Source: a virus
Lineage: Duplodnaviria; Caudoviricetes
Direction: 5' to 3' (one strand)
Virus record (IMG/VR): IMGVR_UViG_3300031629_000002
Coordinates: 343-64,342 of that record
Length of the DNA stretch: 64,000 nucleotides
The translations under genes were made by a program, and so were the position numbers. Below are positions 5,701 through 51,823 of this stretch, piece after piece (the stretch's first letter is position 1; the number at the start of each line of letters is the position of its first letter). The notes below the pieces were generated by a model. It was not told the DNA's origin, searched no databases, and worked only from the letters and a program-made list of their open reading frames with translations.

Positions 5701-7732
5701 TAAAAATCACCTTCACTAATTGTATGCAATCCAACGGGATGTCCATTGATTTGGACATCTCACGCCAGTCGCCCCTGCTGTTGAGGATAGCGACGACATC
5801 GGAAACGGGTCGTTGTATTTGACCTGCCATCATGGCAAGGTCTATTGCGTTGGATTGAATCATAGGGGTATGAGGAACTGCCTTTGCGATGGTTTCATCT
5901 TGCAGTGCTAATTGACATTGGACGGTTTCGAGCATGGACTCGATTTCTTCTTTTCCGAAGACATTTCCAGCATGTCCCGCACCTTTTCCGGTCATGTATG
6001 CAAGTTTATCAGCCATTCCTCTCCATCCTTCTCTAAACCGTGGCGGGCCGTCCTGCCGATTAGGCCCAGCAGGTTGCGCTTGAAAAGGGTTTAGGCGAGC
6101 AGGAGATTGTTCGGGTGGAATGTTTGGGGGTATTTGACCCACGGGTGCTGGTGGTGCTGGCTGTTGTAATCGCACTGGCGGTGCTGGTGCTTGGCGAGGA
6201 ACTGGTGGTGCTGGTGGTTGCTGTTGAATGACTGGCGGGGCAGGAGGCTGTGCCTGTTGCATTGGCGGTGAGGGTGCCGGTGCTGGTGGTATTACTGGGG
6301 CTGACCGAGTGTTGGGCGGATTTGGGCGATTCGCTCCACGGGCTTCGGCTCTCCGTTGGGCTTGAGCCTCCATTTGCCCTTGTAAGTCGTTTCTTGGTTG
6401 AGGTTGGGTTTGTCCTTCGTTTGGTTGAGGTTGCTGTGCTTGGGGTTGCATTCTATTTTGCGGAGGCTGAATACCCGGATGGTTCGATTGAAGGTGGCTG
6501 ATGAAACCGCTAATGAGGCGATCCGCCGCCGAGCCACCGGAACCTTGACCCATCAAATGTTCCATTGGAGGGAGGTCAGTCATGTTATACTTCTTACCTA
6601 AGTATTCATGGAGTTTAGGTAAGTAATGCCTCTTTGTAGTTCTTGCCCCGTTGTAAAGGTCTGTTCCCTTTTCGTTTTTGAATCCGTCTTCAAACCATGT
6701 GCTGTAAGCATCTGTTGGTGATTGAGGCATAACATTTGCTTCTTGCTGTTGTCCCTCAATCGCTTGCTGTGCCAAATCCGGTGCCGCATCGGCAACGATG
6801 CCCGGTGTTTCATTAGATTGGATGGATTCTCTTTGTCGGATTCCGTAAAGGTGCTGAATGTTCGTTTTGTTTTGAGGTGCGTAATTACTCAACACAGGGT
6901 GTCGAAGCCATGCTTCTTGAACCATTTCGGGTGTTAATTCCTGCCCGTTATTTTGAGCATGACGGGCTAATTCATTCACCATAGCAATACTGTGTTTCTG
7001 TGCTTCGTGATTGATATATACCCCGTTTGGGCGCACCTTGTCGGCTTTGATTGATTCGCTGGTGTTGCCCTTATGGCCTTGTTGCTCACGCACCCACTTG
7101 AGTCCTTCTTGGTATGGGCGATTCCATGACTCGTTCATTAGGTTCTCTTGATCACGGTTTCCTACACGCAATTTAGGAACACCGTGTGCGTCAAATTGCC
7201 AAGGGGTTTCTTTTTTCTGTGGCCCCCAAACACCTTCTCGCCACTGCTGTGTCAAGACAGAACGCCCTAAATCCGTGCTGAACGGTAGAGGAATGTCGTC
7301 GGGGATTTTGTCAAGCCCTTTTCCTGTCATACCTGCTTCATCTCGTTTTTGCGCCCAAAGGTGGTTTTGAACTTCAACAGCGTGGTTTATGTGCTTGCTA
7401 CCGATATTGATTGCTTTTTGGAGTGTGGCTTTGTATGTGTCTTCGTCGCCCTGCGGCCCCGCTTGAATAATTGCGGCTTCTTGAATTGTTAAGTGACTTG
7501 GATCTGATGGGTCAGCATTGTATATTGCTTCATAGACAGCATCGGCTTCTACACCAGTTAAGTGGTCGCCGGTAATATCACCCATAGGCATTGGGTAGGC
7601 TGTCAATTTGCCGTCTTCACCTATTTGTCCAATCAACCCGTTAATGAGTGCATCGAAGTCATAGAACCCCATACCCTTGTTAATGATAGTGCATCGGTCA
7701 AGAATGGCCCATGGTGTGCGTAGTAATGTCAT
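5690..7732 (-). CDS. Hypothetical protein with Pro/Gln-rich linker
   Basis: 680 aa ORF; ATGA overlap with the upstream gene. Confidence 0.75.
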   Translation of the reverse strand: MTLLRTPWAILDRCTIINKGMGFYDFDALINGLIGQIGEDGKLTAYPMPMGDITGDHLTGVEADAVYEAIYNADPSDPSHLTIQEAAIIQAGPQGDEDTYKATLQKAINIGSKHINHAVEVQNHLWAQKRDEAGMTGKGLDKIPDDIPLPFSTDLGRSVLTQQWREGVWGPQKKETPWQFDAHGVPKLRVGNRDQENLMNESWNRPYQEGLKWVREQQGHKGNTSESIKADKVRPNGVYINHEAQKHSIAMVNELARHAQNNGQELTPEMVQEAWLRHPVLSNYAPQNKTNIQHLYGIRQRESIQSNETPGIVADAAPDLAQQAIEGQQQEANVMPQSPTDAYSTWFEDGFKNEKGTDLYNGARTTKRHYLPKLHEYLGKKYNMTDLPPMEHLMGQGSGGSAADRLISGFISHLQSNHPGIQPPQNRMQPQAQQPQPNEGQTQPQPRNDLQGQMEAQAQRRAEARGANRPNPPNTRSAPVIPPAPAPSPPMQQAQPPAPPVIQQQPPAPPVPRQAPAPPVRLQQPAPPAPVGQIPPNIPPEQSPARLNPFQAQPAGPNRQDGPPRFREGWRGMADKLAYMTGKGAGHAGNVFGKEEIESMLETVQCQLALQDETIAKAVPHTPMIQSNAIDLAMMAGQIQRPVSDVVAILNSRGDWREMSKSMDIPLDCIQLVKVIFNGK

Positions 7733-9402
7733 CGCTTGCTGGCCCCCGCAAATGCGACCGGCATTAGCGTGGTGTCTTCAAACTTCCACCCTTTGAGGTT
7801 CTCGGTCGGGCCGGTTGGGGCACTGTTTCTTTCCTCACTTGCTTGACTTCCTCTCTTAGCGTCAGCGTCATGTTCGGGTGTTGCCTTTGTTAATTTTTCT
7901 ACGGCGGTAAGGAGTTTAGTCAATTGCTGTTTTAGTTTTTGGAGTTCGTTTAATTTGAAGCCACTGATGTCAGTTCCTCGGAGGCCAAGTTTGGCACCCT
8001 TCTCCATTTTCAAAGCGTCCCCACTAAGAGGGTCGTGTATTAGTGACCCTTCTCGGTCAGCGTTCTTTGGTTTTTTGAATGATGTGCCTTTGCTGGATGA
8101 AGGCTGTGAACCCATACGGGTTCCTCGCCCACTCATACCGATAGTTTGCACCTTTTCGCCAGTGATACCACGGGTGTCAGCGTGTGCCGACATTCCAGTA
8201 GGGAGTGACCCCATTTCACGGCGGAACTTCTCGGAGGCTAATTTGCGCTGGTAAGCAACAGGATCACGAAGACGCAAAGGCATATCCTTTGCCCGTGGGT
8301 TGCCACTAAACATACGGCGAGGTGCAAAGGCTTGACGCTTAGTATGGCGAGTGAGGTTCTGTTCAGTCGAAGCGGCACGGCGGGAGGTCTTGCTTTTTGG
8401 CTGACGGCTTGCTTCTTGCTTGCCTTTTTTGGCCTTGCGCCTTCGCTCTCGCTTATGCTTCTTTTTAGACTTCTTTTCATCCTCTTCGGATTCTTCATCC
8501 TCTTCATACTTACGCCCCTTTTTCTTTCGCTTTGATTTTGTAATATCGGAAATGAATACGGTGTCGGATGATGCTTGGATGTCTTTGTTCCAATCCTCCG
8601 GTAGTTCGCCAACCGGGGTAGGTGCGAACCATTTGAATGAATCTTCGGGCCAACCACCAAGCGGGTGAGGTATTTGTTCTTTGATTTTTTGTTGGGCTTC
8701 TAAGGCTTGATGTGGTTTTATGTCAGCCCCGGATGCGAAACCCGTTGATCTTGGCCCCATCATACCAGCGTCCCCTAATTCAATTAAGTCGTGAAGCATG
8801 TAGCCTTGAGAAGTTTTTCTTTCTTCGTCGGTCATATCTACCGCCCATTGGTCGTCCATCTGATCAGCCGACATTTGTTCCATGTCGGCAATCATCTCTT
8901 CTCTTGTTGGGAGGTCTTTGTCTCCATCGTTCTTCACCAACGACCAAGCGTCTTCAAATGCGTCGTTGCTACGACCGAATACCATTCCCGGCCCTTCACG
9001 CCGAACAGAACCAACGCTGGCACCGGCTGAAATACCCATACCGTTTCGATGGCCCATATCAACACCCATAGCCGATTCAAGCAATTCGCTTTCACCGTTC
9101 ACCATAGGTGTGTCATTTAGTGTTTCGGCCATTTCCTCCGCATGGATTGAAATGTGTGGGAGGTCGCCCTCCATCTCTTTGAGTGCTTTTTTGCGGCGTG
9201 TCGCCGGATCCATCTGTTCTCTTGTTTCATGTGAAGCCGCACCAAATTGGCTGATATGCGACAAACCGTCAGCATTTTCATTTGGGTTCACATCGTAATC
9301 GCCCATCATCTCACGGGGATTATGCCCTCCTGTGAACTCTTGAACCCGTATGGATGTATCATTGGGGTTAAGGTTGGGGGCTTGCGGGGGCATTTCAATC
9401 AC
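7729..9402 (-). CDS. Hypothetical protein with basic/acidic tracts and internal AFEDAWSLVK motif
   Basis: 557 aa; KSKRKKKGRKYEEDEESEEDEKKSKKKHKRERRRK block. Confidence 0.75.
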   Translation of the reverse strand: MIEMPPQAPNLNPNDTSIRVQEFTGGHNPREMMGDYDVNPNENADGLSHISQFGAASHETREQMDPATRRKKALKEMEGDLPHISIHAEEMAETLNDTPMVNGESELLESAMGVDMGHRNGMGISAGASVGSVRREGPGMVFGRSNDAFEDAWSLVKNDGDKDLPTREEMIADMEQMSADQMDDQWAVDMTDEERKTSQGYMLHDLIELGDAGMMGPRSTGFASGADIKPHQALEAQQKIKEQIPHPLGGWPEDSFKWFAPTPVGELPEDWNKDIQASSDTVFISDITKSKRKKKGRKYEEDEESEEDEKKSKKKHKRERRRKAKKGKQEASRQPKSKTSRRAASTEQNLTRHTKRQAFAPRRMFSGNPRAKDMPLRLRDPVAYQRKLASEKFRREMGSLPTGMSAHADTRGITGEKVQTIGMSGRGTRMGSQPSSSKGTSFKKPKNADREGSLIHDPLSGDALKMEKGAKLGLRGTDISGFKLNELQKLKQQLTKLLTAVEKLTKATPEHDADAKRGSQASEERNSAPTGPTENLKGWKFEDTTLMPVAFAGASKR

Positions 9403-20920: not shown

Positions 20921-21027
20921 AGGAGGGCTATACCCTGTCGGTTTCAAATAGATTGTTATTGGTGTGTTAGGTGTGTGAACACTCACAAGGTTGATAAGCC
21001 ACTGCTGATGAGCGTTGGTTGAGCAAC

Positions 21028-22596
21028 ATGATGCAAAGCGGCCAACAACCAATCTTCATTCTAAAGGAAGGAACCGAGCGAAGCCACGGACGAGTGGCAC
21101 AGTCGAATAACATAGCCGCCGCAAAAGCGGTCGCTGATGCAGTGAGAAGCACACTTGGGCCAAAAGGAATGGACAAGATGCTTGTTGATGAAGGCGGAGA
21201 TGTCATCATCACCAACGATGGTGCTACAATTCTTCGTGAAATGGACATCGACCATCCTGCGGCGAAAATGATTATCGAAGTGGCGAAGACTCAAGAGCAA
21301 GAATGCTATGACGGGACAACCAGTGCTGTTATCCTTGCTGGTGAACTCCTAAAGAAGTCGGAAGAACTCATTACCCAAAACATTCATCCGACAACAATTT
21401 GCTCGGCATTCCGTGACGGTGGACAATACATAAACGCCAAATTAGAGGGATATGCTGAAAACAGTGAAGACCGTTTGCTTTCTATCGCTACTACTGCCCT
21501 TACTGGCAAATCATCAACATCTATCAAAGATCACCTTGGTGCTATCTGTGTCGATGCTGTTTCCAGTCTTTCTCAAGACGGTGCGGTTGATTTAACGCAA
21601 ATCAATGTGGTAAAGGCTGTTGGCGGCGACGCACACGACAGCGAACTCATTAGCGGCATTATTGTTGATAAAGAGCGTTGCCACAGTGGTATGCCAAGTG
21701 CTATCAGCAACGGTAAGGTTCTACTCATTGATTTCCCACTTGAAGTCAAGACAACCGAAATGGATGCGAACATCCAAATCACAGATCCAAACCAAATCAC
21801 TGCTTTCTTAGAACAAGAAGAAGGCTACATCCGTGAACTGGTTGAGAGGATTATAGCAAGCGGAGCAAAAATCGTTGTCTGTCAAAAGGGAATAGATGAC
21901 CTCGCAAAACACTATCTATCCAAAGCAAGTATTTTTGGACTCGAAAAGGTCAAGCGTTCCGATATGGAGTCCTTAGCCCGTGCTACTGGCGCAGGTATCA
22001 TCAACAACCTTGACGATGCCGAAGACGCCCTCGGTCTATGTGAATCATTAGAAGAGAAGAAGGTTGGTGAAATGCCTATGTCTTTCTTCTCCACACCTAA
22101 CTCTTCGGCTGTTACACTGCTTCTTAGAGGCGGCACAGCACCTTTCGTTGAAGAAATTGAACGAGCCTTTGAAGACGCAGTAGGTGTAGTGGCTATTGCA
22201 TACGAAGACGGTAAGGTTCTCACTGGTGGCGGTTCTATCTACGCCGCTTTGAGTCGTGATCTTGCTGACTATGCACTTACTATCGGTGGCCGTGAGCGCA
22301 TGGCTATGGAGGCTTTCTCTCAAGCACTTGAGGTAATCCCACGCACACTCGCTGAAAACGGTGGTCTTGACCCCGTTGATGAGATGATGGCACTACGCAA
22401 GGCACACAGCGAAGGTTTGCATAACCACGGTGTCAATGTCGAGAGTGGCGGTGTCATGCACATGGGCGAAGCCGGTGTCTATGAACCAAAGCGTGTTGTA
22501 GAACAGGCATTGAAGTCTGCTGTCGAAACAGCGACCATGATTCTCCGTATTGACGATGTAATTTCATCCCGCAAGGGCGGCCCAAGACAAGGTTAA
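21028..22596 (+). CDS. ths: Thermosome subunit (group II chaperonin)
   Basis: [45 protein letters not shown]; archaeal type. Confidence 0.97.
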
Positions 22597-23309
22597 ATCT
22601 CGTCTTCTGTCGGCCATTCCCATGGTTGTAATTGATCACTGCTTATTTTAGGTGCGAAGTGTTTGCCATCTGTTGTCACACGGGGATTGGATCGTGTTGA
22701 AGCACTGTGTATAGCACCTCTATCTACCATCTTGTCCCAAAAGCCAGCCTTGCTGGGTTCGACCTTTGTAGCGTGAGCATGAAAAGAGTCTAATTCTGTT
22801 TGACCTGCCATTTCCTGTTCAAGTTCCGCAATCATCTCACGCAGGTATGATTCACCGAGGCCACCATCCCGCACAGTGGTAGCGACTTCAAAGTGGTGAA
22901 CTTCTACCTGCCCTGTATCGAAGTTCGTTTGAGCGACACCTCTTGCCATCCCATCTTTGGATTCCCAAGAAATATCACCAAATGGCGATGCTGGTGTCAT
23001 TAGATCTGACATGTAATCGGGAAACATTTCTTTTTCCCGTGCAGTAGGTGTTTTGTTGGGGTCTATCGTGTCTTCCCATTTTTCTTCGGGGTAGAAGAGG
23101 GGTGACTTGAGCAATCGCCAAGCCATGTCCATTGGCCCGCCTTTTTTGACAGCAGGACATTGGCACTTATCCGTTCCACTCTTGGACTTGCCACATTTTT
23201 TACAATCCCATTCAACCTCAATCGGAGGGGGTAATTTTTTGTTATCCCAATCTACCTCAATCGGGAGGGACTTCATTAGTAATGCGAAGGCGGTTTCAAA
23301 GGCGGTCAT
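22593..23309 (-). CDS. Signal-motif protein: Zn knuckle plus GNAT acetyltransferase-like domain
   Basis: N-terminal MTAFETAFALLMK; internal GPMDMAWRLLK; FEVATTVRDGGLGESYL...AGFWDKM. Confidence 0.7.
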   Translation of the reverse strand: MTAFETAFALLMKSLPIEVDWDNKKLPPPIEVEWDCKKCGKSKSGTDKCQCPAVKKGGPMDMAWRLLKSPLFYPEEKWEDTIDPNKTPTAREKEMFPDYMSDLMTPASPFGDISWESKDGMARGVAQTNFDTGQVEVHHFEVATTVRDGGLGESYLREMIAELEQEMAGQTELDSFHAHATKVEPSKAGFWDKMVDRGAIHSASTRSNPRVTTDGKHFAPKISSDQLQPWEWPTEDEI

Positions 23310-24064
23310 TCATAACCACCCGCCCTCCATTCATCGGCTTCTTTGATTTGTTCATCAGTGGGATAGCGGATAACTTGCATTGAACCGGAACAATTGTTTT
23401 TGATTCCATCTACTGGTTCTTTGAGCGAAACCCCGCAAACCCCACTATTGCGATAAGCAATCCTGCCACAGTCACGGCATTGTCGCAATTTGGATATAAT
23501 ACCCTTGATTAAAGCCCATGCTTGTTCGACGGCGGTCGTTTGCGGGTCGGCGGAGGCAGTGAAATAAGACGAAGGATGACGGCGATTTGCCTTAGAAGCG
23601 CAATCATCCCATTCAGTAAGTAATTGGCGTGCGAATGCCTGTAATTTTTCATTCAATCCGGTTTTTGCCGCTTGCGGGCCTAAAAGACCCTGTGTATGAC
23701 CCTCTTTGTCATAATTGACACTGTGCTTCTCACCAAACCTGCCGCTTGCCCATTCTTCTAATTTTTCACGGAGGTTGTCGCACGCATTCTGTGTGTGGTA
23801 TTGTAGGGTGTCATAGGTTTCCGGGTAGTCGGGATCGTCGTCGCCCATAGCATGAGGCATGTCCCATTCTTCGTGACCCCAAGCACTTGTTTCATAATAC
23901 CATTTTGTGCTAATTTGAATACAACATTCGTCAGCAGGGAGGCTGTCATCATCATCCCAACCGTCCTTATCGGGTATTTTCATCGGCGGTGGTGGTGATG
24001 ACATTTCCGGCGGTTCCAATGTCGCATTTTTGATAAGTGCGAACGCTTGTTCAAAGGCGGTCAT
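23306..24064 (-). CDS. Signal-motif protein with C-terminal Zn ribbon
   Basis: Likely start MTAFEQAFALIK (ATGA overlap); internal AVEQAWALIK followed by CRDC..C..C. Confidence 0.75.
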   Translation of the reverse strand: MTAFEQAFALIKNATLEPPEMSSPPPPMKIPDKDGWDDDDSLPADECCIQISTKWYYETSAWGHEEWDMPHAMGDDDPDYPETYDTLQYHTQNACDNLREKLEEWASGRFGEKHSVNYDKEGHTQGLLGPQAAKTGLNEKLQAFARQLLTEWDDCASKANRRHPSSYFTASADPQTTAVEQAWALIKGIISKLRQCRDCGRIAYRNSGVCGVSLKEPVDGIKNNCSGSMQVIRYPTDEQIKEADEWRAGGYE

Positions 24065-24543
24065 TCTTTGTCCCACTCCTGCACATGGCCCACTGGCCTC
24101 TCTTCCCATAGCCGCTTATCATTAGCCCTACCTTGATTTTTATTACGGTGAATAAACCACCCTGCTTCTTTGAGCGATTCCTCGTCAATTTCCTTTCCTG
24201 CCAATTCTTCCTCCGAATCATCAACAAGGCTAATGTGTTCGGGAGCCACCTCACCAGATCCAAGGACATTCCATCCCAAATCCTTAACATCATCTCGGCT
24301 GTTTATGTGATCATCATCAATATACAACAAAGCAGGAGGACTACCATGAGAAATAGAACGACTTGCGGCATAGGCTCTTGCCATGAGTTCATCGGGAGTC
24401 ATGTAAAATGATGGGTCGCCCATGAGCGCACCACCGGGATTCATAGCCTTGCCACCTTCTTGGAGGATTTTCTTTGCCGCCTCCATGGTAGTTCCGTGAT
24501 ATGGCATTTTCAGTAAAGCGAATGCTTGTTCAAAGGCGGTCAT
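24061..24543 (-). CDS. Signal-motif protein: putative ADP-ribosyltransferase-fold domain
   Basis: MTAFEQAFALLK-MPYHGTT..AAKKILQEG...FYMTPDELMARAYA shows the H-Y-Y ART-like spacing. Confidence 0.7.
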   Translation of the reverse strand: MTAFEQAFALLKMPYHGTTMEAAKKILQEGGKAMNPGGALMGDPSFYMTPDELMARAYAASRSISHGSPPALLYIDDDHINSRDDVKDLGWNVLGSGEVAPEHISLVDDSEEELAGKEIDEESLKEAGWFIHRNKNQGRANDKRLWEERPVGHVQEWDKE

Positions 24544-24737
24544 TCTTTCCCACCTCTCCATCCGAAGCCATATCCCTTGCTACAATCGGTCGGGCATTGA
24601 ATACCACCAAGCATTGAATTGTAGTTCACCCATTCACCAGCGTCAATGGTTCGACCACAGGTCTTACAATTGCCAGTGTATTTAGCCTTAAAGGGGGCTT
24701 TCAGTAGCGAAAAGGCTTTGGTAAATGCTGTCACCAT
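24540..24737 (-). CDS. Signal-motif Zn-finger microprotein
   Basis: MVTAFTKAFSLLK-APFKAKYTGNCKTCG...CPTDC. Confidence 0.75.
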   Translation of the reverse strand: MVTAFTKAFSLLKAPFKAKYTGNCKTCGRTIDAGEWVNYNSMLGGIQCPTDCSKGYGFGWRGGKE

Positions 24738-25480
24738 TCTTCATCCTCTTCCTGTTCCTGTCGCTCTTGATATTCTGCGAATCTCTTGCCAGCATCAAGC
24801 CAGCGTTGTTGCCACTCGGATTTAGGCACTTTTTCGGCTTCATCGGGATGAACCCAATTTGACCCACGCCCGAACTCGCTGTGCATGTATTGAGTGTCCG
24901 GGTCGTTCCAGTTCTGTTCTTTAGGTATTGATGCCAACCCTTTAGGAAAAATGCCCCTGCTTGCTAAAAGCCCAAGCATGTCAGCACTGTTCTCACGGGC
25001 TGGGCCAAACGACCCACTCTTACCGTATTTTGAGAAGTTCTTTCGGTATTCTTCTAAAGCATCCAAAAGCCCTGCACCCATAGACCTTCTTCGTAAATCC
25101 GATGGAACAAAGACACGCTCGATTTTGTTATCAATAACGGCGGCGAATGGGTTTTTTTGACCCAAACCGAACTGTTGCTCGGCTTCTCTATCTTCATCTA
25201 TTGCGTCCATAGGGATAACTGCGGCATCCATCCGATCTATGTTGTTATGCTTGTGCCCAAAACCACGCTTGTCATCTTCACCTATCCATTCTCGCTGTGG
25301 TTCGATGTTGATTGGGAGTGTCCGGTCGTCTGTGGGGTCATAGAAGTCACCAACATACTTTTGCGCTGGGGCGTGGTCGTCGTCACCCTCCGTGAACTCA
25401 CCCTCTAAAGGGCGCACTGAACCGGGAACGAAGGGCATTTTCAGTAGTAAGAAGGCTTGGTCGAAGGAACTGATTGTCAT
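24731..25480 (-). CDS. Signal-motif protein: GNAT-like domain
   Basis: MTISSFDQAFLLLK-MP; IERVFVPSDLRRRSMGAGLLDAL. Confidence 0.65.
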   Translation of the reverse strand: MTISSFDQAFLLLKMPFVPGSVRPLEGEFTEGDDDHAPAQKYVGDFYDPTDDRTLPINIEPQREWIGEDDKRGFGHKHNNIDRMDAAVIPMDAIDEDREAEQQFGLGQKNPFAAVIDNKIERVFVPSDLRRRSMGAGLLDALEEYRKNFSKYGKSGSFGPARENSADMLGLLASRGIFPKGLASIPKEQNWNDPDTQYMHSEFGRGSNWVHPDEAEKVPKSEWQQRWLDAGKRFAEYQERQEQEEDEEW

Positions 25481-25596
25481 TGTTCCACCACCACCGAGTA
25501 TAGATAGGCGAGGGGGAGCAGTATGATAAGAATTGGGATTAGGACAAATGCTCCCACTGCCTTTATTAGTAGGTTGCCCAAAGAGTCACCCTCCAT
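25477..25596 (-). CDS. 39-aa single-TM microprotein
   Basis: Hand translation MEGDSLGNLLIKAVGAFVLIPILIILLPLAYLYSVVVEQ*; fills the gap; stop overlaps the next ATG. Confidence 0.65.
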   Translation of the reverse strand: MEGDSLGNLLIKAVGAFVLIPILIILLPLAYLYSVVVEQ

Positions 25597-25600
25597 TTTC

Positions 25601-27379
25601 TCACTCCATATCGGGGTAGTCCAATAACTCGGCGTCTTCGGAACGATTGCGTCTTATGAAGTCCCTTTCCCATTCTTCCATACCATTATTCCAGTCTGCT
25701 AAATCAATTTCCCTCTCCATGAGATCATCGGTTTCCGATGTGGACATTTGCCCTTGGAACTCATCGGGTAGTGCTATTTTACCCGACGCACCTTGTTGAA
25801 GGCGTTTTAATGCCTCCGACATGTGTTGATCTCGTTCATGGTCTTCATAGTAATATCCGGTTGTTCCTAAAGCATTTACTGGTTGAACTGCTCTTGGTGC
25901 CACCTCATCCCCTTCGTCGTTGTAATGCCAGCCTCTATGGGCACTCTTCTCTTCTTCGGGTGTCATATCATGGTCGGGCATCATCGAAGCAATCCACGCA
26001 TAAAGTTCGTCTTCATCCATAAACTCGCCATCCATACCTTCAAGGTCGTCTTGAATGTAACCCATTGATTGCGGGTCGGCTGTAACGAACGACGCAGGGT
26101 TTCCGTCTTCATCGAAGCCGGGGTCGGGTGCCACTTTGATTGCTGGGTAGGTTTGGCGCATAGGTGGAACCCCGTGATGACTTAATCCCAAATTAGATAG
26201 AATACTTTGATTAAACGACGATTCGGGAACAGCAGATCCATACATCGCATAGGCCAATGCTTCTTCCTTGTCCTTTGTCCAATATCGGAACTCGTCGTTG
26301 ATTCTGTCACCGCCGGAGTAAAGTGGCCCCGTGACCTTGCCGTATGTGCCTTGTGGTGTATCAACGCTCCACGGTGCCTTGATTAAATGCCAAGCCTCAT
26401 CAAATGCACCCATAGGTTCACCCGCTTGCTTAATATCCCCCTGTGATTCTATCGGTCGGGGCATTTTTACCTGTTCCCCGCCATGTTGCCTTTGGTATTT
26501 GGCTGGCACTTTATTCCCTCTTGCTGTTGTCGAAGGGTGATATGAGAGGCGGTCATTTACTTCCTTTTCTTCTCCCGCAAATTGTCCCGAATAAGCACCT
26601 ATTTCGTGTGCCATATTATAATTCGCTCTCGGTAATTCCCCTTCTGCAACCGCACTACTTATGGGCTGGTCTATTGCCGCATGGGTTCCTTCGTGGGCGA
26701 GAGTGGATGTTATTTCGGGTGTTTTATTTTCGGCTTCTTCCGCCGAAAGCATCTCGTCAGTCCACCCATATTTACCAAAAGCCGCTAAATTGACACCATT
26801 CATGGTTTCATAATCTTGCATACCACCCAATTTTTGCGGTGCCTTACTATCGAGATCCATTACATTGTTATTTCTGTCCACTCGACCTCGGTCTATTTCG
26901 TTGCCCTTCATATCAAGCAAGTTTGAACTTCCGTGGAACTTTGCTGTATCGGATTGAACAGTAGTAGTTCTCGGTTGAGAAGCACCTCTTCTAAAAGGAA
27001 CATCTCCTTGCTGGGCAAACTCCCCTCGTTCCGCCCGTTCCTCTTGGGTAAATGGTTCATTGGCGGTTCTTACATCATCATCCATCACTCTTGTCGAAGG
27101 GCCACCATATTGAGTGTTCTCGGCGGTCATAGGAATACGCTGTTCTGTTCCCGTTGCACGCTCTTTGTTGTGTTTTTCACTCTCCATGTTATTGTAATCC
27201 GCTTGAAACTTGCGCTCTTTAGGATGCCACCAGCGTGGTTTTTGATAATCAACGGTGGTGGTGGCGTTTGCTTCCGGCCCCCAATAAGTTCCTGCGCTTG
27301 ACCCATCGTCCATACCGTCTTTACGGGGGAAATACATTTCCGATTTCATCAAATGCCACACTCTATCAATTGCGCTCAT
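25601..27379 (-). CDS. Two-module signal-motif protein: HExxH metallopeptidase-like plus possible ART-like domain
   Basis: MSAIDRVWHLMK; AHEGTH...HEIGAY; internal GEPMGAFDEAWHLIK followed by LYSGG...YWTKDKEEALAYA. Confidence 0.7.
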   Translation of the reverse strand: MSAIDRVWHLMKSEMYFPRKDGMDDGSSAGTYWGPEANATTTVDYQKPRWWHPKERKFQADYNNMESEKHNKERATGTEQRIPMTAENTQYGGPSTRVMDDDVRTANEPFTQEERAERGEFAQQGDVPFRRGASQPRTTTVQSDTAKFHGSSNLLDMKGNEIDRGRVDRNNNVMDLDSKAPQKLGGMQDYETMNGVNLAAFGKYGWTDEMLSAEEAENKTPEITSTLAHEGTHAAIDQPISSAVAEGELPRANYNMAHEIGAYSGQFAGEEKEVNDRLSYHPSTTARGNKVPAKYQRQHGGEQVKMPRPIESQGDIKQAGEPMGAFDEAWHLIKAPWSVDTPQGTYGKVTGPLYSGGDRINDEFRYWTKDKEEALAYAMYGSAVPESSFNQSILSNLGLSHHGVPPMRQTYPAIKVAPDPGFDEDGNPASFVTADPQSMGYIQDDLEGMDGEFMDEDELYAWIASMMPDHDMTPEEEKSAHRGWHYNDEGDEVAPRAVQPVNALGTTGYYYEDHERDQHMSEALKRLQQGASGKIALPDEFQGQMSTSETDDLMEREIDLADWNNGMEEWERDFIRRNRSEDAELLDYPDME

Positions 27380-28385
27380 TATGACCCCTCCATGTCCAAT
27401 TTTCTTTTAATCTATCGTAACGGTCGTATTGATCTTCCGACCCCATGCCTTTCGGCTCATCTAAATATGGAGGCATTTCATTAAACGGCTTTAAGCCCTC
27501 AACCTCAACCATGGCATCCATCCATTCTTTGATTTCCGTTGCTTCGGGATAACCCAAAGCATCCCAAATGTTGAGGTTGCCGACGACAGTAGTGGGTTCC
27601 GTTATGTCGTAGGTCAATGAATTGTGTAGTCCCGCCTCCCGCACTTTCGCCACCGCTTGTTGGAGTATTCCTTCATAGGGTTTTGCCGAGTAGTTTCTTT
27701 CAACGGCCATCATATCAGCCGTTTCACGGTCAAACCCTTGATTCCTTGCCCAAAGTCGCCTCGCTTTATCCGATTGCGCCGAGTCCGGCTTCAACGGAAC
27801 ACCCCAATGGGTCAATAAATCATACATGTCTGTCCCCAAACCAAGCCCTTGTAGGCGGTTTGGTAAATCCGGCATAGGGGTGGAACGGGGATCTTGGGTT
27901 TGGGCGGTGTCTGCACGGGTATGATACCGACGACCGAACGGGTCGGTATGATTGTAAAAGTCGGCACCACCCACATGGCGGTCTTGGCCGTGTATTGATT
28001 CTTTAATTTCGTCTATATCTATTTCATTTGAACGAGCCGCTTCGGCCAATTGCTCTTCACTCATAGGTTGCGTCACCGACATTTCACCGCCTTCACGCCT
28101 GTAAGGTTCCCAAGCGGGTTTGTTTTTTGGGGGATTGAGAGTATTACGAAGCCACTTATCCATCCTAATGTTGTAGCGTTCTCCCGTGTGCGGGTGAATC
28201 CATTGGGCTGATGCTTCACCGCTTTGTAAATCCCGTGAGTTTCTTTGGGCCTGTCCACGGTGGTCTTTAGCCTCCATGAAGTGGGGTGGTTTGTCGGACG
28301 GCTTATCAGTCCACACGGGTTCAGTCACCGTGTCCCAGTCAATGGGCATCTTAATGAGGGTAAAGGCTCGACTAAATGCACTCAC
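27366..28385 (-). CDS. Signal-motif protein: GNAT-like domain
   Basis: MSAFSRAFTLIK-MP; LPNRLQGLGLGTDMYDLL...PDSAQSDKARRLW. Confidence 0.65.
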   Translation of the reverse strand: MSAFSRAFTLIKMPIDWDTVTEPVWTDKPSDKPPHFMEAKDHRGQAQRNSRDLQSGEASAQWIHPHTGERYNIRMDKWLRNTLNPPKNKPAWEPYRREGGEMSVTQPMSEEQLAEAARSNEIDIDEIKESIHGQDRHVGGADFYNHTDPFGRRYHTRADTAQTQDPRSTPMPDLPNRLQGLGLGTDMYDLLTHWGVPLKPDSAQSDKARRLWARNQGFDRETADMMAVERNYSAKPYEGILQQAVAKVREAGLHNSLTYDITEPTTVVGNLNIWDALGYPEATEIKEWMDAMVEVEGLKPFNEMPPYLDEPKGMGSEDQYDRYDRLKENWTWRGHNERN

Positions 28386-29215
28386 CAGTCATCACCCCAA
28401 ATCGCTTTGCCTCCAACCGTCAATTGCGGAGGATTGTCGGAATGTGGTTCCATCTGTTCCAGCCAAAGGGCCAAATCATCTCTTTGCGCCCTTAGATATT
28501 CTTGATCGCCCGTATTGCTTTCGAGGAAATTGTTGTCCTCATCCAGATCAGGCAACCTATCCAAGAGTGCCGTGACAGGTAATTGCATGTTCCTCTTGTT
28601 GGTGAGGTATTCTTGGTATTGTTCGGCACTATCTTGCCCATCTGCATTTGACTCGCCCGGCCACCAATCGGCACCTCGATGCTCCACTTGAGAGTCAAGC
28701 ATCCTCGCTCTACCCTTTGTATCGTAGCCAAAGTTCATAGGGTGCCTATCCCCAATTATGTGGGCTAAGGCTGTATGCGCTACATGGGCACTGCGTTCCG
28801 GTTTCTTAGAGGGATCCGGCGGCCAGTCGGGGTTTTTGAGGGAAAGTTTAGGCTGGATGTTGTAATGGCCCTGCCCGCCCTCCGAAAGTTCATTAGAGGC
28901 GTCAATGTATTTTTCCGAGGCAACTGGGAAGCCTAATTCCTCCAACGCCAAAACAATGGCATTGTCACGGTCTTTACCAACCGCACCAGCACCCTCGCCC
29001 CAGCCATTCGGGATTTTCGCAACGAATCTACGGTCATTCGGGTGTTTGAAGGTTTCCATCATGCCGCCACCGCCTAAGCCCAAACCCTTGGCACCCCCTT
29101 GAGTCAAGAGTTCGTGCGTATCAATATCGGTATCAATACTCGAAATCTCGTCACGCCAGTTAGGACTCCACTCTTTGAGAAGCGAAAAGGCTATGTCAAA
29201 GGCGGTCATACTCAT
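28382..29215 (-). CDS. Signal-motif protein: HipA/PI3K-like kinase
   Basis: MTAFDIAFSLLK; Gly-rich loop GLGGGG, VAK lysine, catalytic GDRHPMN, Mg-binding MLD. Confidence 0.7.
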   Translation of the reverse strand: MSMTAFDIAFSLLKEWSPNWRDEISSIDTDIDTHELLTQGGAKGLGLGGGGMMETFKHPNDRRFVAKIPNGWGEGAGAVGKDRDNAIVLALEELGFPVASEKYIDASNELSEGGQGHYNIQPKLSLKNPDWPPDPSKKPERSAHVAHTALAHIIGDRHPMNFGYDTKGRARMLDSQVEHRGADWWPGESNADGQDSAEQYQEYLTNKRNMQLPVTALLDRLPDLDEDNNFLESNTGDQEYLRAQRDDLALWLEQMEPHSDNPPQLTVGGKAIWGDDW

Positions 29216-29637
29216 TCCTCCGTATAATCGTGTATGATGCCGTCTTCATACATGCGTTCCCAAAATCCTTTGGCCGATTCAATCACATCTTGCCCCATAA
29301 CCTTTGAGTCGGGATTCATTTTCTCATGCTCTCGCATTTCAGCAATCATTTGCACCAAAGCCTCACGCCCCTTACCCTTCCCTCTCATAGAAGGATCTAT
29401 CTCAAAGTATGGAATGCGTGCCCCAATGTGAGTTCCGTTCCCCGTTGTATAGTCAGCACGGCGGTGAAGACCCCAAGCCTTCGGGTTCGCTTCATCATCA
29501 ACCCAAAAGTCATCTCTTTTTTGGTGTTCAAAGTCGGAAACAGAACCCATAACCCCATCCCATGCCTTTTTTGGTAATTTGTCGGGGGCGACAAAGGGCA
29601 TTTTCAGTAAAGCCCAAGCGGTGATGAAAGCGGTCAT
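29212..29637 (-). CDS. Signal-motif protein: GNAT acetyltransferase
   Basis: MTAFITAWALLK-MP; FEIDPSMRGKGKGREAL...SAKGFWERM. Confidence 0.75.
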   Translation of the reverse strand: MTAFITAWALLKMPFVAPDKLPKKAWDGVMGSVSDFEHQKRDDFWVDDEANPKAWGLHRRADYTTGNGTHIGARIPYFEIDPSMRGKGKGREALVQMIAEMREHEKMNPDSKVMGQDVIESAKGFWERMYEDGIIHDYTEE

Positions 29638-30155
29638 ATTCCAAGCCCCTCCAAGATTTCTCGAACCATAGCCTCGTATGCTTCCGGGTCTAATCCACTT
29701 TCAGTCCTTGAAGGGAATTGTTGCATTACCTTGAGATTCTCCGGCCTAATAGTCCGGGGACTCCTTTGGTGTCCAGTAAAATATCCATAATCCGGCATCC
29801 AGTCTTCATACTGACCGGCGTGAAGTAAAACAGGCGTTTCATGTCCATTTGCATAATTCGCTAAGTCCTCGGCATTAGCATGGTCTTCATCGGCACCATA
29901 TATCCACTCGCCATCCCACAAATCTTCAACCTTGTCCATCCCGTAATAGTCAGCCTGTCGTTTCAAATGAGCCTCCGCTTCATCACGGTCGTAGTCGTGG
30001 TATTCCTCAAGGTCGGTTAAAGCCTCCTTCAACCCTGCATTAGTCCCATTATGAATTGGTTTCAAACCCTCCGACATAATCGAAGGCAGGTTTGAAGCAT
30101 CCGTCATATGATACGGCATTTTCAAAAGAGCAAAGGCGTCATCAAAAGCGGTCAT
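29634..30155 (-). CDS. Signal-motif protein: putative ART-fold (Tpt1/KptA/DarT-like N-terminus) domain
   Basis: MTAFDDAFALLK-MPYHMTDASNLPSIMSEGLKP ... IRPENL. Confidence 0.65.
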   Translation of the reverse strand: MTAFDDAFALLKMPYHMTDASNLPSIMSEGLKPIHNGTNAGLKEALTDLEEYHDYDRDEAEAHLKRQADYYGMDKVEDLWDGEWIYGADEDHANAEDLANYANGHETPVLLHAGQYEDWMPDYGYFTGHQRSPRTIRPENLKVMQQFPSRTESGLDPEAYEAMVREILEGLGI

Positions 30156-30778
30156 ATCCAACTACTCCTACCATGAACGGCGTTATACCACTTCTCTTCC
30201 GATTCTTCCTCTTCCATAGCCCGTTGAGCATTCCATCTCGCCCTCTCGCCCATAGTTTGCGCTTGCCTATCGGGGCGAATACCACCATCAACAAGATCCT
30301 CTAAAATCCTTTCAATACCCTTGGTGTCTTGAACCTGCGGGTGCCTAAGTATCTGATCCATCCTGTTTTTAGGCTCATAGTGAGCATCTTGGGCGGATTC
30401 GCCAGCGTAAGCACCATACTCTTGGGCAATACTATTATTCCGCAAAGAAGGCTCAACACTGTGAATCGCTTGATGGGTGGCCTCATGCGCCGAAATCCTA
30501 CCAATCTTGGTAGCCATCGACCGTTGCTGGGCCGCATCGAACTCACGGTCTTTACGACGACCGATATTAGAAGGATGAACACGGGAACGGGAATAAGAAC
30601 CATCTATCCCCAATTCAGCACCACCTACCAAATCATCATCTTCCGGCGATAACTCGAAATCCTGCGCCCCTATGTGCTTACGATCAAGGAAACCAAACTC
30701 ATCAGTAGGCATAGCACGGTATTCCTCCTTGCTTGCGCTCTCCTTGAACAATTGCCAAGCGGTGTCAAATGCGCTCAT
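30152..30778 (-). CDS. Signal-motif protein: HExxH metallopeptidase-like
   Basis: MSAFDTAWQLFK; AHEATHQAIH...AQEYGAY. Confidence 0.7.
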   Translation of the reverse strand: MSAFDTAWQLFKESASKEEYRAMPTDEFGFLDRKHIGAQDFELSPEDDDLVGGAELGIDGSYSRSRVHPSNIGRRKDREFDAAQQRSMATKIGRISAHEATHQAIHSVEPSLRNNSIAQEYGAYAGESAQDAHYEPKNRMDQILRHPQVQDTKGIERILEDLVDGGIRPDRQAQTMGERARWNAQRAMEEEESEEKWYNAVHGRSSWI

Positions 30779-31299
30779 GGGGCATCATCCTCTTGCATCC
30801 AAGCAGGTTGCTCTTGAGTAGTAGGAACTTGAACCACCCTCTCCGGTGGTATTTGATTTGGGAATATAGTAAAATTGCCGAATATGTCTTTTTTGTTTTG
30901 CTGTTCCAAACCCCCACCTCTAACTCCGAACATAGTAGGCTCACTTGCGTTCCTCTCTCCGGCAATATCGGCATATTGTTGGGAGGTAGGCTTTTCGGGA
31001 GATGTATATACTCCTTCGCCATAATTACCACCCGATGGTTGTAACCCATCCTGTTTAATTCGGTTTGTCATACTTTCCTGTTGTAAGGGTAACTTCTTTG
31101 GAAAAAGCCGCCTAAAAGGATTCCGAGTATTCATATTACGCCTCATATTGGCGTCCATTTCTTCGAGGTTGGTGTGTCTCTTTTCACTCGTTCCATGATA
31201 ATGTGTGACAGGCCCATGACTACTGGGAAAATCCTCATGGTGTTCACCCAATTCAGTTTGGCGTTTTATTAACAACCAAGCGGTGTCGAAAGCGGTCAT
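30775..31299 (-). CDS. Signal-motif protein: putative ADP-ribosyltransferase (PARP/DTX-like H-Y)
   Basis: MTAFDTAWLLIK; YHGTS...IKQDGLQPSGGNYGEGVYTSPEKPTSQQYA...IPPERV. Confidence 0.75.
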   Translation of the reverse strand: MTAFDTAWLLIKRQTELGEHHEDFPSSHGPVTHYHGTSEKRHTNLEEMDANMRRNMNTRNPFRRLFPKKLPLQQESMTNRIKQDGLQPSGGNYGEGVYTSPEKPTSQQYADIAGERNASEPTMFGVRGGGLEQQNKKDIFGNFTIFPNQIPPERVVQVPTTQEQPAWMQEDDAP

Positions 31300-31799
31300 T
31301 CCCAATCACCCTCACTTTCTGTTAATGAACGGTGGTATTGCTCCCCTTGAGCGTGCCCTAATTCCATACCCTCCGATGAACGACCTTGCTCAACGAACAA
31401 ATCCCACGGCGATACACCATCCGGGCAACGGTGACGGTTCTCCCAACCGGCCATTTCGTTGTCATAGTCCTCATCGGGAGCAAGTCCGTGAATGAGATGG
31501 CGTTTCGGCGGCTCATCCAAATGTCGATGGCTCAAACCATCCGTTAGATTTTCAGCGCACCTCTCGCATATTGTTTCCGAGGTTCCCCGACCACCCACTT
31601 GACTTGGGTTTGTTTCCCCAGTAGGGGTCGCTGTATCGGGCTTGTGGCTATCCTTATCAAAATGAGGATAAAACGAAGTAAAGTCAAGGCTAAACAGCCC
31701 ACCGTCTTGTTCCATCCCTGCAACAGTGTCGGGAATGTGACCGTAAGGCGCAAAAGTAGATGACTTCACAATGCTCCAAGCCATTTCAAAAGCACTCAT
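31296..31799 (-). CDS. Signal-motif hypothetical protein
   Basis: MSAFEMAWSIVK-S; CERC...HRC. Confidence 0.7.
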   Translation of the reverse strand: MSAFEMAWSIVKSSTFAPYGHIPDTVAGMEQDGGLFSLDFTSFYPHFDKDSHKPDTATPTGETNPSQVGGRGTSETICERCAENLTDGLSHRHLDEPPKRHLIHGLAPDEDYDNEMAGWENRHRCPDGVSPWDLFVEQGRSSEGMELGHAQGEQYHRSLTESEGDWE

Positions 31800-32686
31800 C
31801 TCTTCACCACCCGTAGGATCTTACCCTTCGTTTCACGAACCTTATTGCGGAGCGTAGTGCGAAGGTCGGGATTCTTAATCCGATGAGCAAGAGCAATCGC
31901 TGGCTTCAAAGCATCCTCTTCAACGCCACAGGGAATGTTCATTTTCACGCACCAAGCAACAAGTTCCTCCGTCGCTAAATTGGCACCCGACTTCGGCATG
32001 AAGGGACAACCGCCCAAACCGCCAATACTCGAATCAAACTCTCGAACACCATGAAGGTAGGCCGTCTCAACATTCGCCATCAAGTGCTTACCCCTGTGAA
32101 GGTGAAGTCCTATGTTTCGTGTCAAGTCATACACCACATCTATACCAAGAGCGATGTCAAACGGCGTAGCATCACCCTCCGTGTCGCAAAGAACAATTTT
32201 ATCCCCAAATGTAAGGCCCGACTTAACAGCACTGGACAATTCATCCATACAACCGCCAAACGCCATCGAAATATACACACGAACCAATTTCGGGTCGATT
32301 CCCTCAAGTGCCTCAACATACCCTTTGAGTATGTTTTTAAGAGACAATCCGTAGTTCTCACGGTTGAAATCGTCATTAGGAGAGAAGAATATGTTGAAAT
32401 TAGTGGCTCCAACAGCCTTAGCACGGTCGATTCCACGCTTATTCGGTATCAATACTGAAAGGCCGACACTATTTGAAGAATCCATACAAACACCCGTATA
32501 AACAGCCTCCGCATCAGCCATGTTCGGAACTCGCTTCGGATGGACAAATGAGGTCACTTCGATCTGTTTCAGCCCCGCTTCTCGGAGAAGGGCAACCAGT
32601 TCGATTTTGTCGGCAGTATTTACCACATGTTCGAGGCCCTGCAAGCCATCACGGGGGCCAACCTCGAAAATGTGAACACCCGCCAT
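31796..32686 (-). CDS. hmgL: Hydroxymethylglutaryl-CoA lyase (DRE-TIM family)
   Basis: IFEVGPRDGLQ, IEVTSFV.PK.VP.MAD, LHLH, DSSIGGLGGCPF....ANLATE. Confidence 0.92.
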   Translation of the reverse strand: MAGVHIFEVGPRDGLQGLEHVVNTADKIELVALLREAGLKQIEVTSFVHPKRVPNMADAEAVYTGVCMDSSNSVGLSVLIPNKRGIDRAKAVGATNFNIFFSPNDDFNRENYGLSLKNILKGYVEALEGIDPKLVRVYISMAFGGCMDELSSAVKSGLTFGDKIVLCDTEGDATPFDIALGIDVVYDLTRNIGLHLHRGKHLMANVETAYLHGVREFDSSIGGLGGCPFMPKSGANLATEELVAWCVKMNIPCGVEEDALKPAIALAHRIKNPDLRTTLRNKVRETKGKILRVVKR

Positions 32687-33422
32687 GTTTCCTGCCTAAA
32701 CATAACTACCAAAAAAAGGATGGGGTGGTTCACCACGAAAAATGAGCCAAAAGAGGAAGGGCATGGAGTAAGCATGGGGATGCAGTTATTCGTGGCGAAC
32801 CATGTGGTGACAGGGGGCGATTCGATATGAAAATTGCGGTGTGTGATGTGTGATGTCAAAGGTGTGAGGACTGACAAAAAAAGTTCTCAATTTTATTCCG
32901 TTTAGCATCTGTGGTTAGGGAAGCCCGCACAAAAAAAAAAAAAATGTGCCCGTAAGCAAGCCTGTGGGTGTTTTTTTTGCGCCCCACACAGCCAATCACA
33001 CACGCCCACAGCATCACACATGGCCTCGCAGTGCCACGGTTAGCGGGCCGAGCCACCAATCACACACAGTATGGGGACGGCTGGGCGTAGGCCCAGCCCA
33101 CCGGCCCAGTGACCCGCAGTGTCACGGTTACGGGGCTATTTGAGGCCCATTCACACGCTAAACAGGCCCATTCATCCACGATCTGCCCTCATTTGGCCTG
33201 TTCCATGTGTGATTCGGTGCTTCGCTGGGTGACTTGACACATGTGTTGAGAGGTGTGGTTCTTCATGTGTGATTGGCCCAGCCATCGACAATCACACACC
33301 AATCACACATCACACAGATCCGTGGCAAAACCGAGTCCACGCCGAGCCTCACCGGAGTGTGTCCTGTTGTGGTTGTTATGGGTTGCTGGGTTGCATTCGA
33401 TTGCTGGTTGTTGGTGCTGTGC

Positions 33423-33479
33423 CATGTGCGTCGGGCATGTGTCATGCTCATGTCTCATGTCCCATGTCCATGTATCATG
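33423..33479. repeat. Array of eight CATG palindromes, mostly 6-7 bp apart
   Basis: CATG at 33423, 33436, 33443, 33449, 33456, 33463, 33469 and 33476. Confidence 0.85.
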
Positions 33480-33682
33480 TGGGCTACTATTATCACTTTA
33501 CTCACTTCTCTCTCTCTCTCTCTTCTCTCTCTCCCTATGTCCCTATACCCTTTAGGGCCTATTGATGATAGATGAAAGTGATGAAAGTGATGAAAGCCCC
33601 AGTGACCTTTGGTAAGGTGGCTGGAACTGGCTGTAAATGCCCTTGAATAGAACCGTGCTACTGTGGGCTTGTAGTAGCCGTT

Positions 33683-33698
33683 GGTTCATATAGGCCGG
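33683..33698 (+). promoter_or_regulatory. Putative early archaeal promoter (TATA box TTCATATA), leaderless transcript
   Basis: GGTTCATATAGGCCGG lies ~25 nt before ATG 33715; an identical 16-mer is at 37519. Confidence 0.65.
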
Positions 33699-33714
33699 AG
33701 GGTGTGGATGGGCC

Positions 33715-50805: not shown

Positions 50806-50858
50806 CACCCCAACCTATATACCCAACCCCCTATTGGCATGAATCCCACGGAAGTGTA

Positions 50859-51818: not shown

Positions 51819-51823
51819 AATAT

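Follow-up and report, generated by a model that had tools for sequence, protein, structure and literature searches.

A shared N-terminal peptide on an array of diverse genes in a magrovirus-like genome, a candidate docking signal for putative virus effectors

The viral record IMGVR_UViG_3300031629_000002 (Duplodnaviria; Caudoviricetes) was studied over 64,000 nucleotides, positions 343 to 64,342 of the record. This whole stretch is called the window here, and it is nearly all of a 64,342-base contig for which CheckV gives a completeness of 61%. Between positions 22593 and 31799 the window contains an array of 13 genes on the minus strand (g1 to g13, in order of position). Their products begin with one and the same short peptide, referred to below as the tag, and continue with cargo parts of different kinds. 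In the window the tag follows the pattern M-[TS]-A-F-[DE]-x-A-[FW]-x-L-[LI]-K, 12 residues long. A six-frame scan of the window with this pattern as a regular expression gave 14 matches, which all lie within 23306-31796 of the minus strand and correspond to the 13 gene starts and one site inside g6. Back-translated into DNA, and with at most one mismatch allowed, the pattern matched 11 times, whereas 100 dinucleotide shuffles gave a mean of 0.00. The original prediction, which was made from the letters of the window and held that 13 genes share an N-terminal helix ending in lysine, is thus borne out.

When a hidden Markov model (HMM) of the tag was run over the whole contig, 17 matches were obtained at E ≤ 10. 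Fourteen of these are strong and lie in the array, two are weak and lie inside g1 and g2, and one lies outside the array (8929-8961); at E ≤ 0.001 the window holds 15 tags. None of the 17 falls in the plus-strand replication arm, from which the motif had been said to be absent. The codons vary among the tag copies (GCC/GCT/GCA, TTT/TTC, TTA/CTA/CTG/CTT and AAA/AAG), and the conservation therefore acts on the peptide and not on the DNA. A Shine-Dalgarno-like stretch resembling GGAGG or GGTGG is found upstream of every copy. With the Met (or GTG) of the tag taken as the start, 10 of the 12 junctions within the array are stop/start overlaps of 4 nt, as is the junction between g13 and the HMGL-like gene preceding it, in agreement with the first description of the genes as mostly overlapping.

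The tag was also looked for outside the window. A degenerate DNA pattern identified 118 loci in IMG/VR, nearly all of them with MTAFDTAWxLLK at the start of an open reading frame (ORF), and often in same-strand clusters. Proteins of at least 40 aa from the window, the IMG/VR loci and five fetched arrays were pooled into a set of 179 distinct tagged proteins, and in 169 of them the start codon stands directly before the core of the tag. One five-member cluster starting with MTAFTTAFELMKAHWRWW, a membrane protein from isolate-genome records, fits the DNA pattern only and fails the extended consensus; it was judged a chance match and left out of the logo. The consensus from 161 N-terminal tags reads M, T (122) or S (27), A (157), F (160), D (112), E (23) or N (13), any residue, A (158), W (150) or F (11), any residue, L (128), L (103) and K (161). 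Position 5 was left free by the search, yet it is D, E or N in 148 of the 161 tags. After K12 only M or A (81 of the 161 tags) and P (54 of 161) recur, and conservation otherwise collapses at this point.

The tag is predicted to be a short amphipathic helix with F4, W8 and L11 on one face and A3, A7 and L10 beside them, and positions 5, 6, 9 and 12 are polar. AlphaFold2 (AF2) places a helix over residues 3-11 in both models that were made (g3 and g9), and the frequent M/A-P after K12 would terminate it. Sec and Tat signals contain a hydrophobic core of about ten residues or more, or a twin-arginine motif; the tag consensus has no hydrophobic run longer than three residues and no RR. Position 8 is Phe in seven of the 13 window tags and Trp in 150 of 161 overall, and the kinase-like family has Phe in two other genomes too. 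Either the lineage or family accounts for this, or position 8 co-varies with the partner.

Some details of the motif had to be corrected. Two genes, g4 (64 aa; 24540..24734) and g7 (339 aa; 27366..28385), probably start at GTG, giving MTAF and MSAF, and the start of g8 (275 aa; 28382..29209) is the second ATG. The tag of g5 (249 aa; 24731..25480) is shifted by two extra residues (MTISSFDQAFLLLKMPFVPGS, beginning MTISSF), and that of g1 (238 aa; 22593..23309), MTAFETAFALLMK, has LLMK and not LLK. The motif was first described as standing at the 13 gene starts of the array, which holds, but it is also found inside genes and at one place outside the array. Thus g6 (592 aa; 25601..27379) begins with the tag MSAIDRVWHLMK, continues with an HExxH module, and then has a full internal tag, PMGAFDEAWHLIKAP (26378-26413, minus strand), and a module characterised by LYSGGD...ALAYAxYGS. 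A weak internal copy in g1, PMDMAWRLLKSP, at about 23100-23129 on the same strand, is followed by a module like that of g9, and g2 (252 aa; 23306..24064) contains a weak tag-like AVEQAWALIKG (23504-23536, minus strand). From its internal tag onward, g1 can be aligned with g9 over the C-terminal half; internal tags therefore mark cassette fusions, and both g1 and g6 are fusions of two tagged cassettes.

The copy outside the array, NDAFEDAWSLVKND, is a full internal tag at about residue 146 (8929-8961) of a 557-aa basic and disordered protein encoded in the morphogenetic arm (7729..9402, minus strand). Its orthologues in two related genomes (G218 and G221) have the tag at the same site, while those in G226 and in G001, a 96.6-kb relative of the window, have a one-residue-longer variant at another site; in the orthologue of G005:C2, a contig of a Poseidoniales single-cell genome, no tag was seen. 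An Atlas search with this disordered protein gave no usable match. In the tag system it may have the role of a hub or of a core client. The 557-aa protein has a very basic centre rich in K and R and a C-terminal coiled coil, and is conserved in relatives.

The cargo parts of the 179 tagged proteins form 78 BLAST clusters (54 singletons). Pfam gave no match at threshold for any of the 13 window proteins, and among 62 cluster representatives a single one reaches a curated threshold. The largest clean cargo family, with 17 sequences aligned, is assigned to the KptA/Tpt1-like ADP-ribosyltransferase (ART) superfamily by its profile, its predicted fold and its NAD-binding histidine. In g3 (160 aa; 24061..24543), which belongs to the family by BLAST clustering, the tag abuts the domain (KMPYHGT...); g10 (173 aa; 29634..30155), where the tag is followed by KMPYHMT..., was added in alignment A2. 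The family profile matches Tpt1/KptA in the PDB with an E-value of 4.8e-4 and, more weakly, diphtheria toxin, exotoxin A and DarT. For the AF2 model of g3 (pLDDT 70.6), the top Foldseek match is KptA/Tpt1 (E 1e-4, probability 1.0, TM 0.44, 98 residues at 2.8 Å). The catalytic residues of the superfamily are the R-H-R-R tetrad of Tpt1 or an H-Y-E triad, and the NAD-binding histidine of the H-G-[ST] motif is invariant in all 17 sequences, g10 having YHMT for YHGT. The family of g12 (174 aa; 30775..31299), with the pattern RQTELGE.H.DFPSS.GPV...YHG (cluster 7, four members), is possibly ART-related.

Protein kinases are recognised by a β3 lysine, an αC glutamate, a catalytic D-x4-N loop and a metal-binding aspartate, in this order. 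In the family of g8, residues K65, E90, D154...N159 and D172 are invariant in six of six sequences (alignment A3) and are found in the kinase order. The Atlas leads for g8 (AceK, Pkinase, Kdo and Kinase-PolyVal) are all below the bar of the tool, and the profiles of this family and of the LYSGGD family gave chance-level matches only against the PDB; kinase-like is a lead when it comes to this cargo. HExxH is present in 19 of the 179 tagged proteins. In an alignment that includes the N-terminal part of g6 as well as g11 (208 aa; 30152..30778), HExxH and a downstream glutamate (H98, E99, H102 and E120 in g11) are invariant in 12 of 12, and at the level of the motif both carry the zincin signature; g11 had no match among PDB sequences.

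Zinc-ribbon-like CxxC pairs are seen in g1, g2, g4 and g13. In g1 they form a CxxC/CxC stretch, while g2 has an acidic region and a CxxC near the C-terminus and matches nothing in Pfam or PHROG. The g4 product is a mini-protein consisting of the tag and a CxxC...CxxxC zinc-ribbon-like part, and it matches phrog_1581 (unknown function) with an E-value of 6.4e-7. The CxxC cargo of g13 (167 aa; 31296..31799) belongs to cluster 14 and has a close homologue in the IMG/VR locus L089. In g9 (141 aa; 29212..29637) the tag is followed by a small module with the pattern RGxGxGR...FW(D/E)(K/R)M..G, where RGKGKGR resembles motif A of GNAT acetyltransferases (R/Q-x-x-G-x-G/A). The model of g9 is unusable (pLDDT 42.7), its best PDB match, a putative acetyltransferase, is not significant (E 0.85), and a GNAT-like nature of g9 and of the C-terminal part of g1, suggested by the motif, is not confirmed. 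The cargos of g5 and g7 have no Pfam match and were given no family. The labels first given to the cargo have therefore fared differently: ART-like is backed by profile, AF2 and Foldseek, and the HExxH peptidase by its motif, while the kinase is a lead, the Zn fingers are represented by CxxC pairs and one PHROG match, and the GNAT label is not confirmed.

The ART family is also the one that best displays the relationship between tag and cargo. Its profile was searched against 1.84 billion representative sequences, and the best 150 of the 892 matches at E ≤ 0.001 were inspected. Among these 150, 62 are tagged at the N-terminus and four more have variant tags, with a median length of 170 aa, and two have an internal tag. 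The roughly 82 untagged ones have a median length of 784 aa and are up to 3974 aa long, and here the match begins at profile position 12-15. Short untagged relatives begin with MPYHGT or MTYYHGT, just where the tag ends. Since the untagged relatives match only from just after the tag, the helix is an add-on and not a part of the ART fold, as had been supposed from the start. The data support that the tag is a discrete, transferable module found on unrelated proteins.

In the long proteins (600-3974 aa) the ART profile matches internal domains. Pfam applied to 28 large untagged relatives identified Phage_Mu_F in five, ART-PolyVal in five (three above the cut-off), Acb1 in three, and PARP or Tpt1 models in 23. 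Further domains in these proteins are Zeta_toxin, Fic, Peptidase_C39, PI3/PI4-kinase, GNAT, Hint and InPase. These large relatives are the phage polyvalent proteins described by Iyer et al. (PMC5512222). The same text argues that polyvalent proteins are packaged, often via the head protein MuF, and injected for the first moments of infection, and gives the HExxH metallopeptidase (MPTase) as the domain found most often in them (PMC5512222). Untagged relatives of the ART cargo thus sit in MuF-bearing polyvalent proteins, which is an indirect argument for the tagged proteins being delivered effectors.

The contig as a whole appears to belong to a magrovirus-like tailed virus of Poseidoniales. Genome layout and thermosome agree with the description of the magroviruses of Marine Group II archaea (PMC5434244). 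A minus-strand arm (1-21052) ends in the large terminase (TerL; 1252-2688, minus strand; PHROG E 1e-70). It is followed by a virus-encoded thermosome subunit gene on the plus strand (21019-22596), convergent with the end of the array (22593-31799, minus strand). On the other side of the array an untagged HMGL-like gene (31796-32686, minus strand) is the first gene of the overlapping string. A divergent intergenic region of about 1 kb (32686-33715) lies between the two arms, and beyond it the plus-strand replication arm encodes a UvrD-like helicase, ParB-N, an RFC-like AAA protein, PolB, a PD-(D/E)XK nuclease and ERCC4.

The genome of the relative G001, with a completeness of 91%, runs collinear with the window, and its TerL is 76% identical. 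Past the point where the contig of the window ends, it encodes a portal, an 1148-aa protein, an S78 prohead protease with a scaffold-like tail, an HK97-type major capsid protein (MCP) and tail genes. The array of G001 is found on the same strand and in the same direction as the genes for TerL, portal, protease and MCP, and a second tagged cluster of three genes follows the tail-fibre genes. The HMGL-like gene (HMG-CoA lyase/aldolase family) has kept its place at the array head in G001 (21202-22071, 61% identity), where it is situated among tagged genes; it is never tagged.

Records that are at least 90% complete contain 1-11 tags at E ≤ 0.001. Distant magroviruses, with a TerL 45-47% and an MCP 63-65% identical, have 1-5 tags at E ≤ 0.01, displaying the same invariant residues. 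The cargo turns over rapidly; only 1-4 clusters are common to any pair among six arrays, in line with the variable cargo that had been expected from a motif HMM scan. Host genomes were expected to lack the motif, and of 201 Poseidoniales genomes just one has the tag at E ≤ 0.01, with all copies on the 106-kb single-cell-genome contig G005:C2 (loci L254, L255, L336 and L350). Its MCP shares 81% identity with the G001 protein, and the contig is therefore viral, a magrovirus. It has 19 tags at E ≤ 10, about 17 in one cluster and two in another, and its presence in a Poseidoniales single-cell genome provides a direct virus-host link for the group. In a scan of all cellular genomes the matches listed were mostly antisense chance ones, and those with the full consensus at an ORF start were on G005:C2 only. 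As far as sequence searches go, the tag thus appears virus-only in the genomes searched. Among fragments selected by their MCP, four of 14 have tags at E ≤ 0.001; since their completeness is 39-67% and the array may lie beyond their ends, the count gives no prevalence. Megablast with the array against a phage collection gave no match, and tblastn with the MCP against it found haloviruses and methanogen viruses only, at 33% identity or less, and no magrovirus record.

A possible explanation, and the one tentatively preferred here, is that the tag works as an interchangeable docking module by which variable effectors are loaded into the procapsid, similar to the capsid targeting sequence (CTS) of T4. 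The tag would then serve as an address label that is specific to the virus and can be moved between proteins. It would be picked up by genes for small enzymes of widely differing kinds and for zinc-ribbon proteins, and the labelled genes would stay together where the morphogenetic arm begins, in an operon of rapidly changing content. The label would dock every product onto one conserved partner, the likeliest being the assembling procapsid, either the interior of the highly conserved MCP or the protease-scaffold. The labelled proteins would be packaged and enter the cell together with the DNA, to act on host targets as soon as infection begins; the S78 prohead protease might cut off the label behind Lys12. 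In function, this would amount to phage polyvalent proteins in a non-covalent, unbundled form, and the label would be the counterpart of the T4 CTS. Docking, capsid destination, cleavage and injection are all steps that we infer. A stronger version is put forward with still more reserve. It holds that one universal, transferable label of 12 residues can load any protein into the capsid and has replaced the covalent giant polyvalent proteins by an operon of 1 to about 19 tagged effectors, the cassettes of which are gained, lost, split and fused between strains.

Docking to one conserved partner is suggested by the periodic hydrophobic residues, the sharp end at K12, the internal copies, and the near-invariance of the tag across groups where TerL is 45-47% identical. 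Internal copies have been kept in the fusions and in the 557-aa orthologues, and a function that needs a free N-terminus is therefore unlikely. Near-invariance across such distant groups calls for a very conserved partner; across these magrovirus groups the MCP is 63-100% identical, while the protease-scaffold goes down to 35-38%. The procapsid is ranked first because of the precedents of the T4 CTS and P1 DarB, the kinship with polyvalent proteins, the common strand and arm with head genes, and the conservation of the MCP, including its N-terminal arm. Near the MCP N-terminus [DE][LI]LK-AD is found in 40 of 40 distinct close sequences and four of four distant ones, and a hydrophobic-hydrophobic-Lys-[SAG] motif stands just before the S78 protease domain, near the N-terminus of the protease. 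The MCP of HK97 is cleaved after Lys. The likeness of these MCP and protease motifs to the end of the tag, LLK-[MAS], is weak and was noted post hoc. The MCP profile had no match among PDB sequences.

The precedents resemble the tag system to different degrees. In the T-even phages a short N-terminal peptide is, according to the available text of two papers, the sole feature common to a diverse, fast-evolving anti-host set of internal proteins (IPI-III, Alt), one of them an ADP-ribosyltransferase (PMC3012670, PMC5512222). As in T4, the tag is a short N-terminal peptide on otherwise unrelated proteins, and the genes are clustered and vary between relatives. The virus described here differs in its archaeal host, in having an S78/HK97-type prohead protease instead of gp21, in carrying 13-19 tagged genes per genome where T4 has a handful, and in that the tag is also found internally. 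Packaging, cleavage and injection are features of T4, while the present system is known from its genes. Polyvalent proteins and the MuF-effector fusions of Iyer et al. (2017) have a similar repertoire (ART, HExxH metallopeptidase, kinase-like and GNAT-like), and the ART cargo is directly homologous. However, they have 2-15 domains per polypeptide, while here there is mostly one module, two in g1 and g6, and a common tag in place of covalent linkage; the MuF domain was found in none of the 13 window proteins and none of the 62 representatives.

The Dar proteins of phage P1 offer another parallel. In the accessible text on this system, the 30 N-terminal residues of DarB target the capsid and suffice for localising the anti-restriction enzyme (PMC9024508), and helical domains of DarA/Hdf anchor cargo on the inner capsid surface (PMC9024508, PMC12810830). 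It is this N-terminal signal and the helical anchoring of cargo that the tag would resemble. The P1 signal, of about 30 residues, is not known to be common to many proteins, however, and loading in P1 is hierarchical. Encapsulins can also be mentioned, as their cargo-loading peptides send unrelated enzymes inside a shell of HK97 fold; these peptides, unlike the tag, are usually C-terminal, have another sequence and serve a cellular compartment instead of a virion.

Several points weigh against loading into the capsid. The idea of a cleavage site builds on the tripeptide LLK, which structural conservation alone could explain. The window has no portal, protease or MCP, as the contig ends earlier, and the links to the head all go via G001. 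The block nearest to the divergent region is the array, strung together with an untagged, metabolic HMGL-like gene, and DNA methyltransferase genes follow the array in G001; this layout suits an early host-takeover operon equally well as a late one. The number of cargo species per genome (13-19) is far above that of T4, and in members of the ART family no linker separates the tag from the first strand. In HVTV-1, the closest relative in culture (MCP 32% identical), the HMM found no tag at E ≤ 1, and the system is therefore not general to this capsid lineage. In addition, group II chaperonin (thermosome) genes are present in all six large tag-bearing records examined, the window included, and an alternative conserved partner therefore exists.

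The last points lead to the most serious competitor, which is considered only somewhat less likely than loading into the capsid. According to this alternative, the tag docks proteins to a hub other than the capsid, such as the viral thermosome, a viral protein like the 557-aa one, or a host machine, and the array is an early takeover kit. Its position next to the divergent control region and the untagged metabolic gene in the same string would fit such a kit. The co-occurrence with chaperonins extends to 31 further tag-bearing records: all five that are at least 90% complete match the thermosome type, and a true GroEL was found in none of the 31. This may be mere shared ancestry, however. The thermosome gene adjoins the array in the window, but in G001 it is located away from it (6313-7938), and pairwise identity among viral thermosomes is no higher than 31-62%, in contrast to the near-invariant tag. 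Chaperonin client tags have no precedent known to us. Helical peptides that bind by inserting into a partner's hydrophobic cleft, as in p53-MDM2, typically have the spacing F-x-x-x-W-x-x-L, which would suit a hub of this kind. On the other hand, the relatives of the ART cargo lie in proteins that are thought to be delivered by the virion, which favours loading into the capsid.

It is improbable that the tag acts in cis, whether in translation, in stability or turnover (as a degron or anti-degron), or as a propeptide that silences toxic enzymes until it is removed by a viral protease. The extreme N-terminal place in 169 of 179 proteins would agree with this, many cargos (ART, kinase-like, zincin-like) are potentially toxic, and HExxH proteins belong to the tagged set. 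However, the synonymous variation indicates that the peptide and not the mRNA is selected, and full internal copies are present in g6 and in the 557-aa orthologues of three genomes, where neither initiation nor the N-end rule can act. A 12-residue helix is also unlikely to inhibit unrelated folds, and the helical periodicity of the conserved hydrophobic residues suggests a binding surface. Slightly less probable again is that the tags bundle with each other into a mixed multi-enzyme particle, a non-covalent polyvalent protein with the 557-aa protein as core. Every member has the same amphipathic helix, a conserved large protein is tagged as well, and cassettes have been fused repeatedly (g1, g6, L001 and L105), so that linkage is tolerated or useful; three helical turns are, on the other hand, short for a stable bundle. 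That the array is an ordinary paralogue family, in which diverged duplicates have kept their N-terminus for no special reason, is very improbable, for although the genes are tandem and co-oriented and some cargos are paralogous (g3/g10, g9 and the C-terminal part of g1, and the family of the C-terminal part of g6), the 78 cargo clusters have no detectable similarity, the folds differ (ART, HExxH, kinase-like and Zn ribbon), untagged homologues start exactly past the tag, and conservation stops at K12.

No description of the tag was known when it was first noticed, and none was found in the magrovirus literature text searched. None of the titles listed there concerns such a motif, and searches for the motif strings in full text gave nothing relevant. 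The main texts of the magrovirus papers searched, in the parts available, mention no N-terminal motif, paralogues or ADP-ribosyltransferases; the supplementary gene tables (PMC5434244, PMC10160649, PMC11706807), which may annotate some of the genes, lay outside the scope. A search combining "capsid targeting sequence" with "archaeal" found unrelated papers only. The tag and its arrays are therefore regarded as undescribed. If loading into the capsid is the right explanation, no signal for cargo packaging would have been described from an archaeal virus before this one, and the principle known from T4 and P1 would extend to Archaea with an evolutionary link to the polyvalent proteins. It would also give a handle for finding every injected effector of these viruses from sequence alone. 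Magroviruses belong to the most abundant viruses of archaea in surface ocean water, viruses and hosts are uncultured, and nearly all of the array proteins are dark matter by Pfam. A label that marks a whole functional class makes it possible to list the tools for host manipulation and to track their turnover between strains, and it helps in choosing candidates for biochemistry, for instance the KptA-like ARTs, which may modify nucleic-acid ends or proteins.

Three minor observations were made on neighbouring genes and regions. The thermosomes of the window and G001 are only 42% identical and are found at different genome positions, despite the 76% identity in TerL; this suggests that the viral thermosome has been replaced or is evolving very fast. 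The 1148-aa protein of G001 is encoded between portal and prohead protease (49232-52678; L256:5121-8564), and the counterpart position in HVTV-1 is occupied by a 1313-aa "zeta toxin" protein. The 1148-aa protein was considered as a MuF-like hub, and this candidate was dropped, as the consensus shows what we take to be the motifs of an ATP-dependent DNA ligase in its C-terminal part. The structural module of magroviruses includes a ligase in the available text of PMC5434244, which is consistent with this. The intergenic region at 32686-33715 contains at least ten direct and inverted copies of CCAATCACACA / TGTGTGATTGG, and these repeats could belong to an origin or a control region, as its iterons or operator sites.

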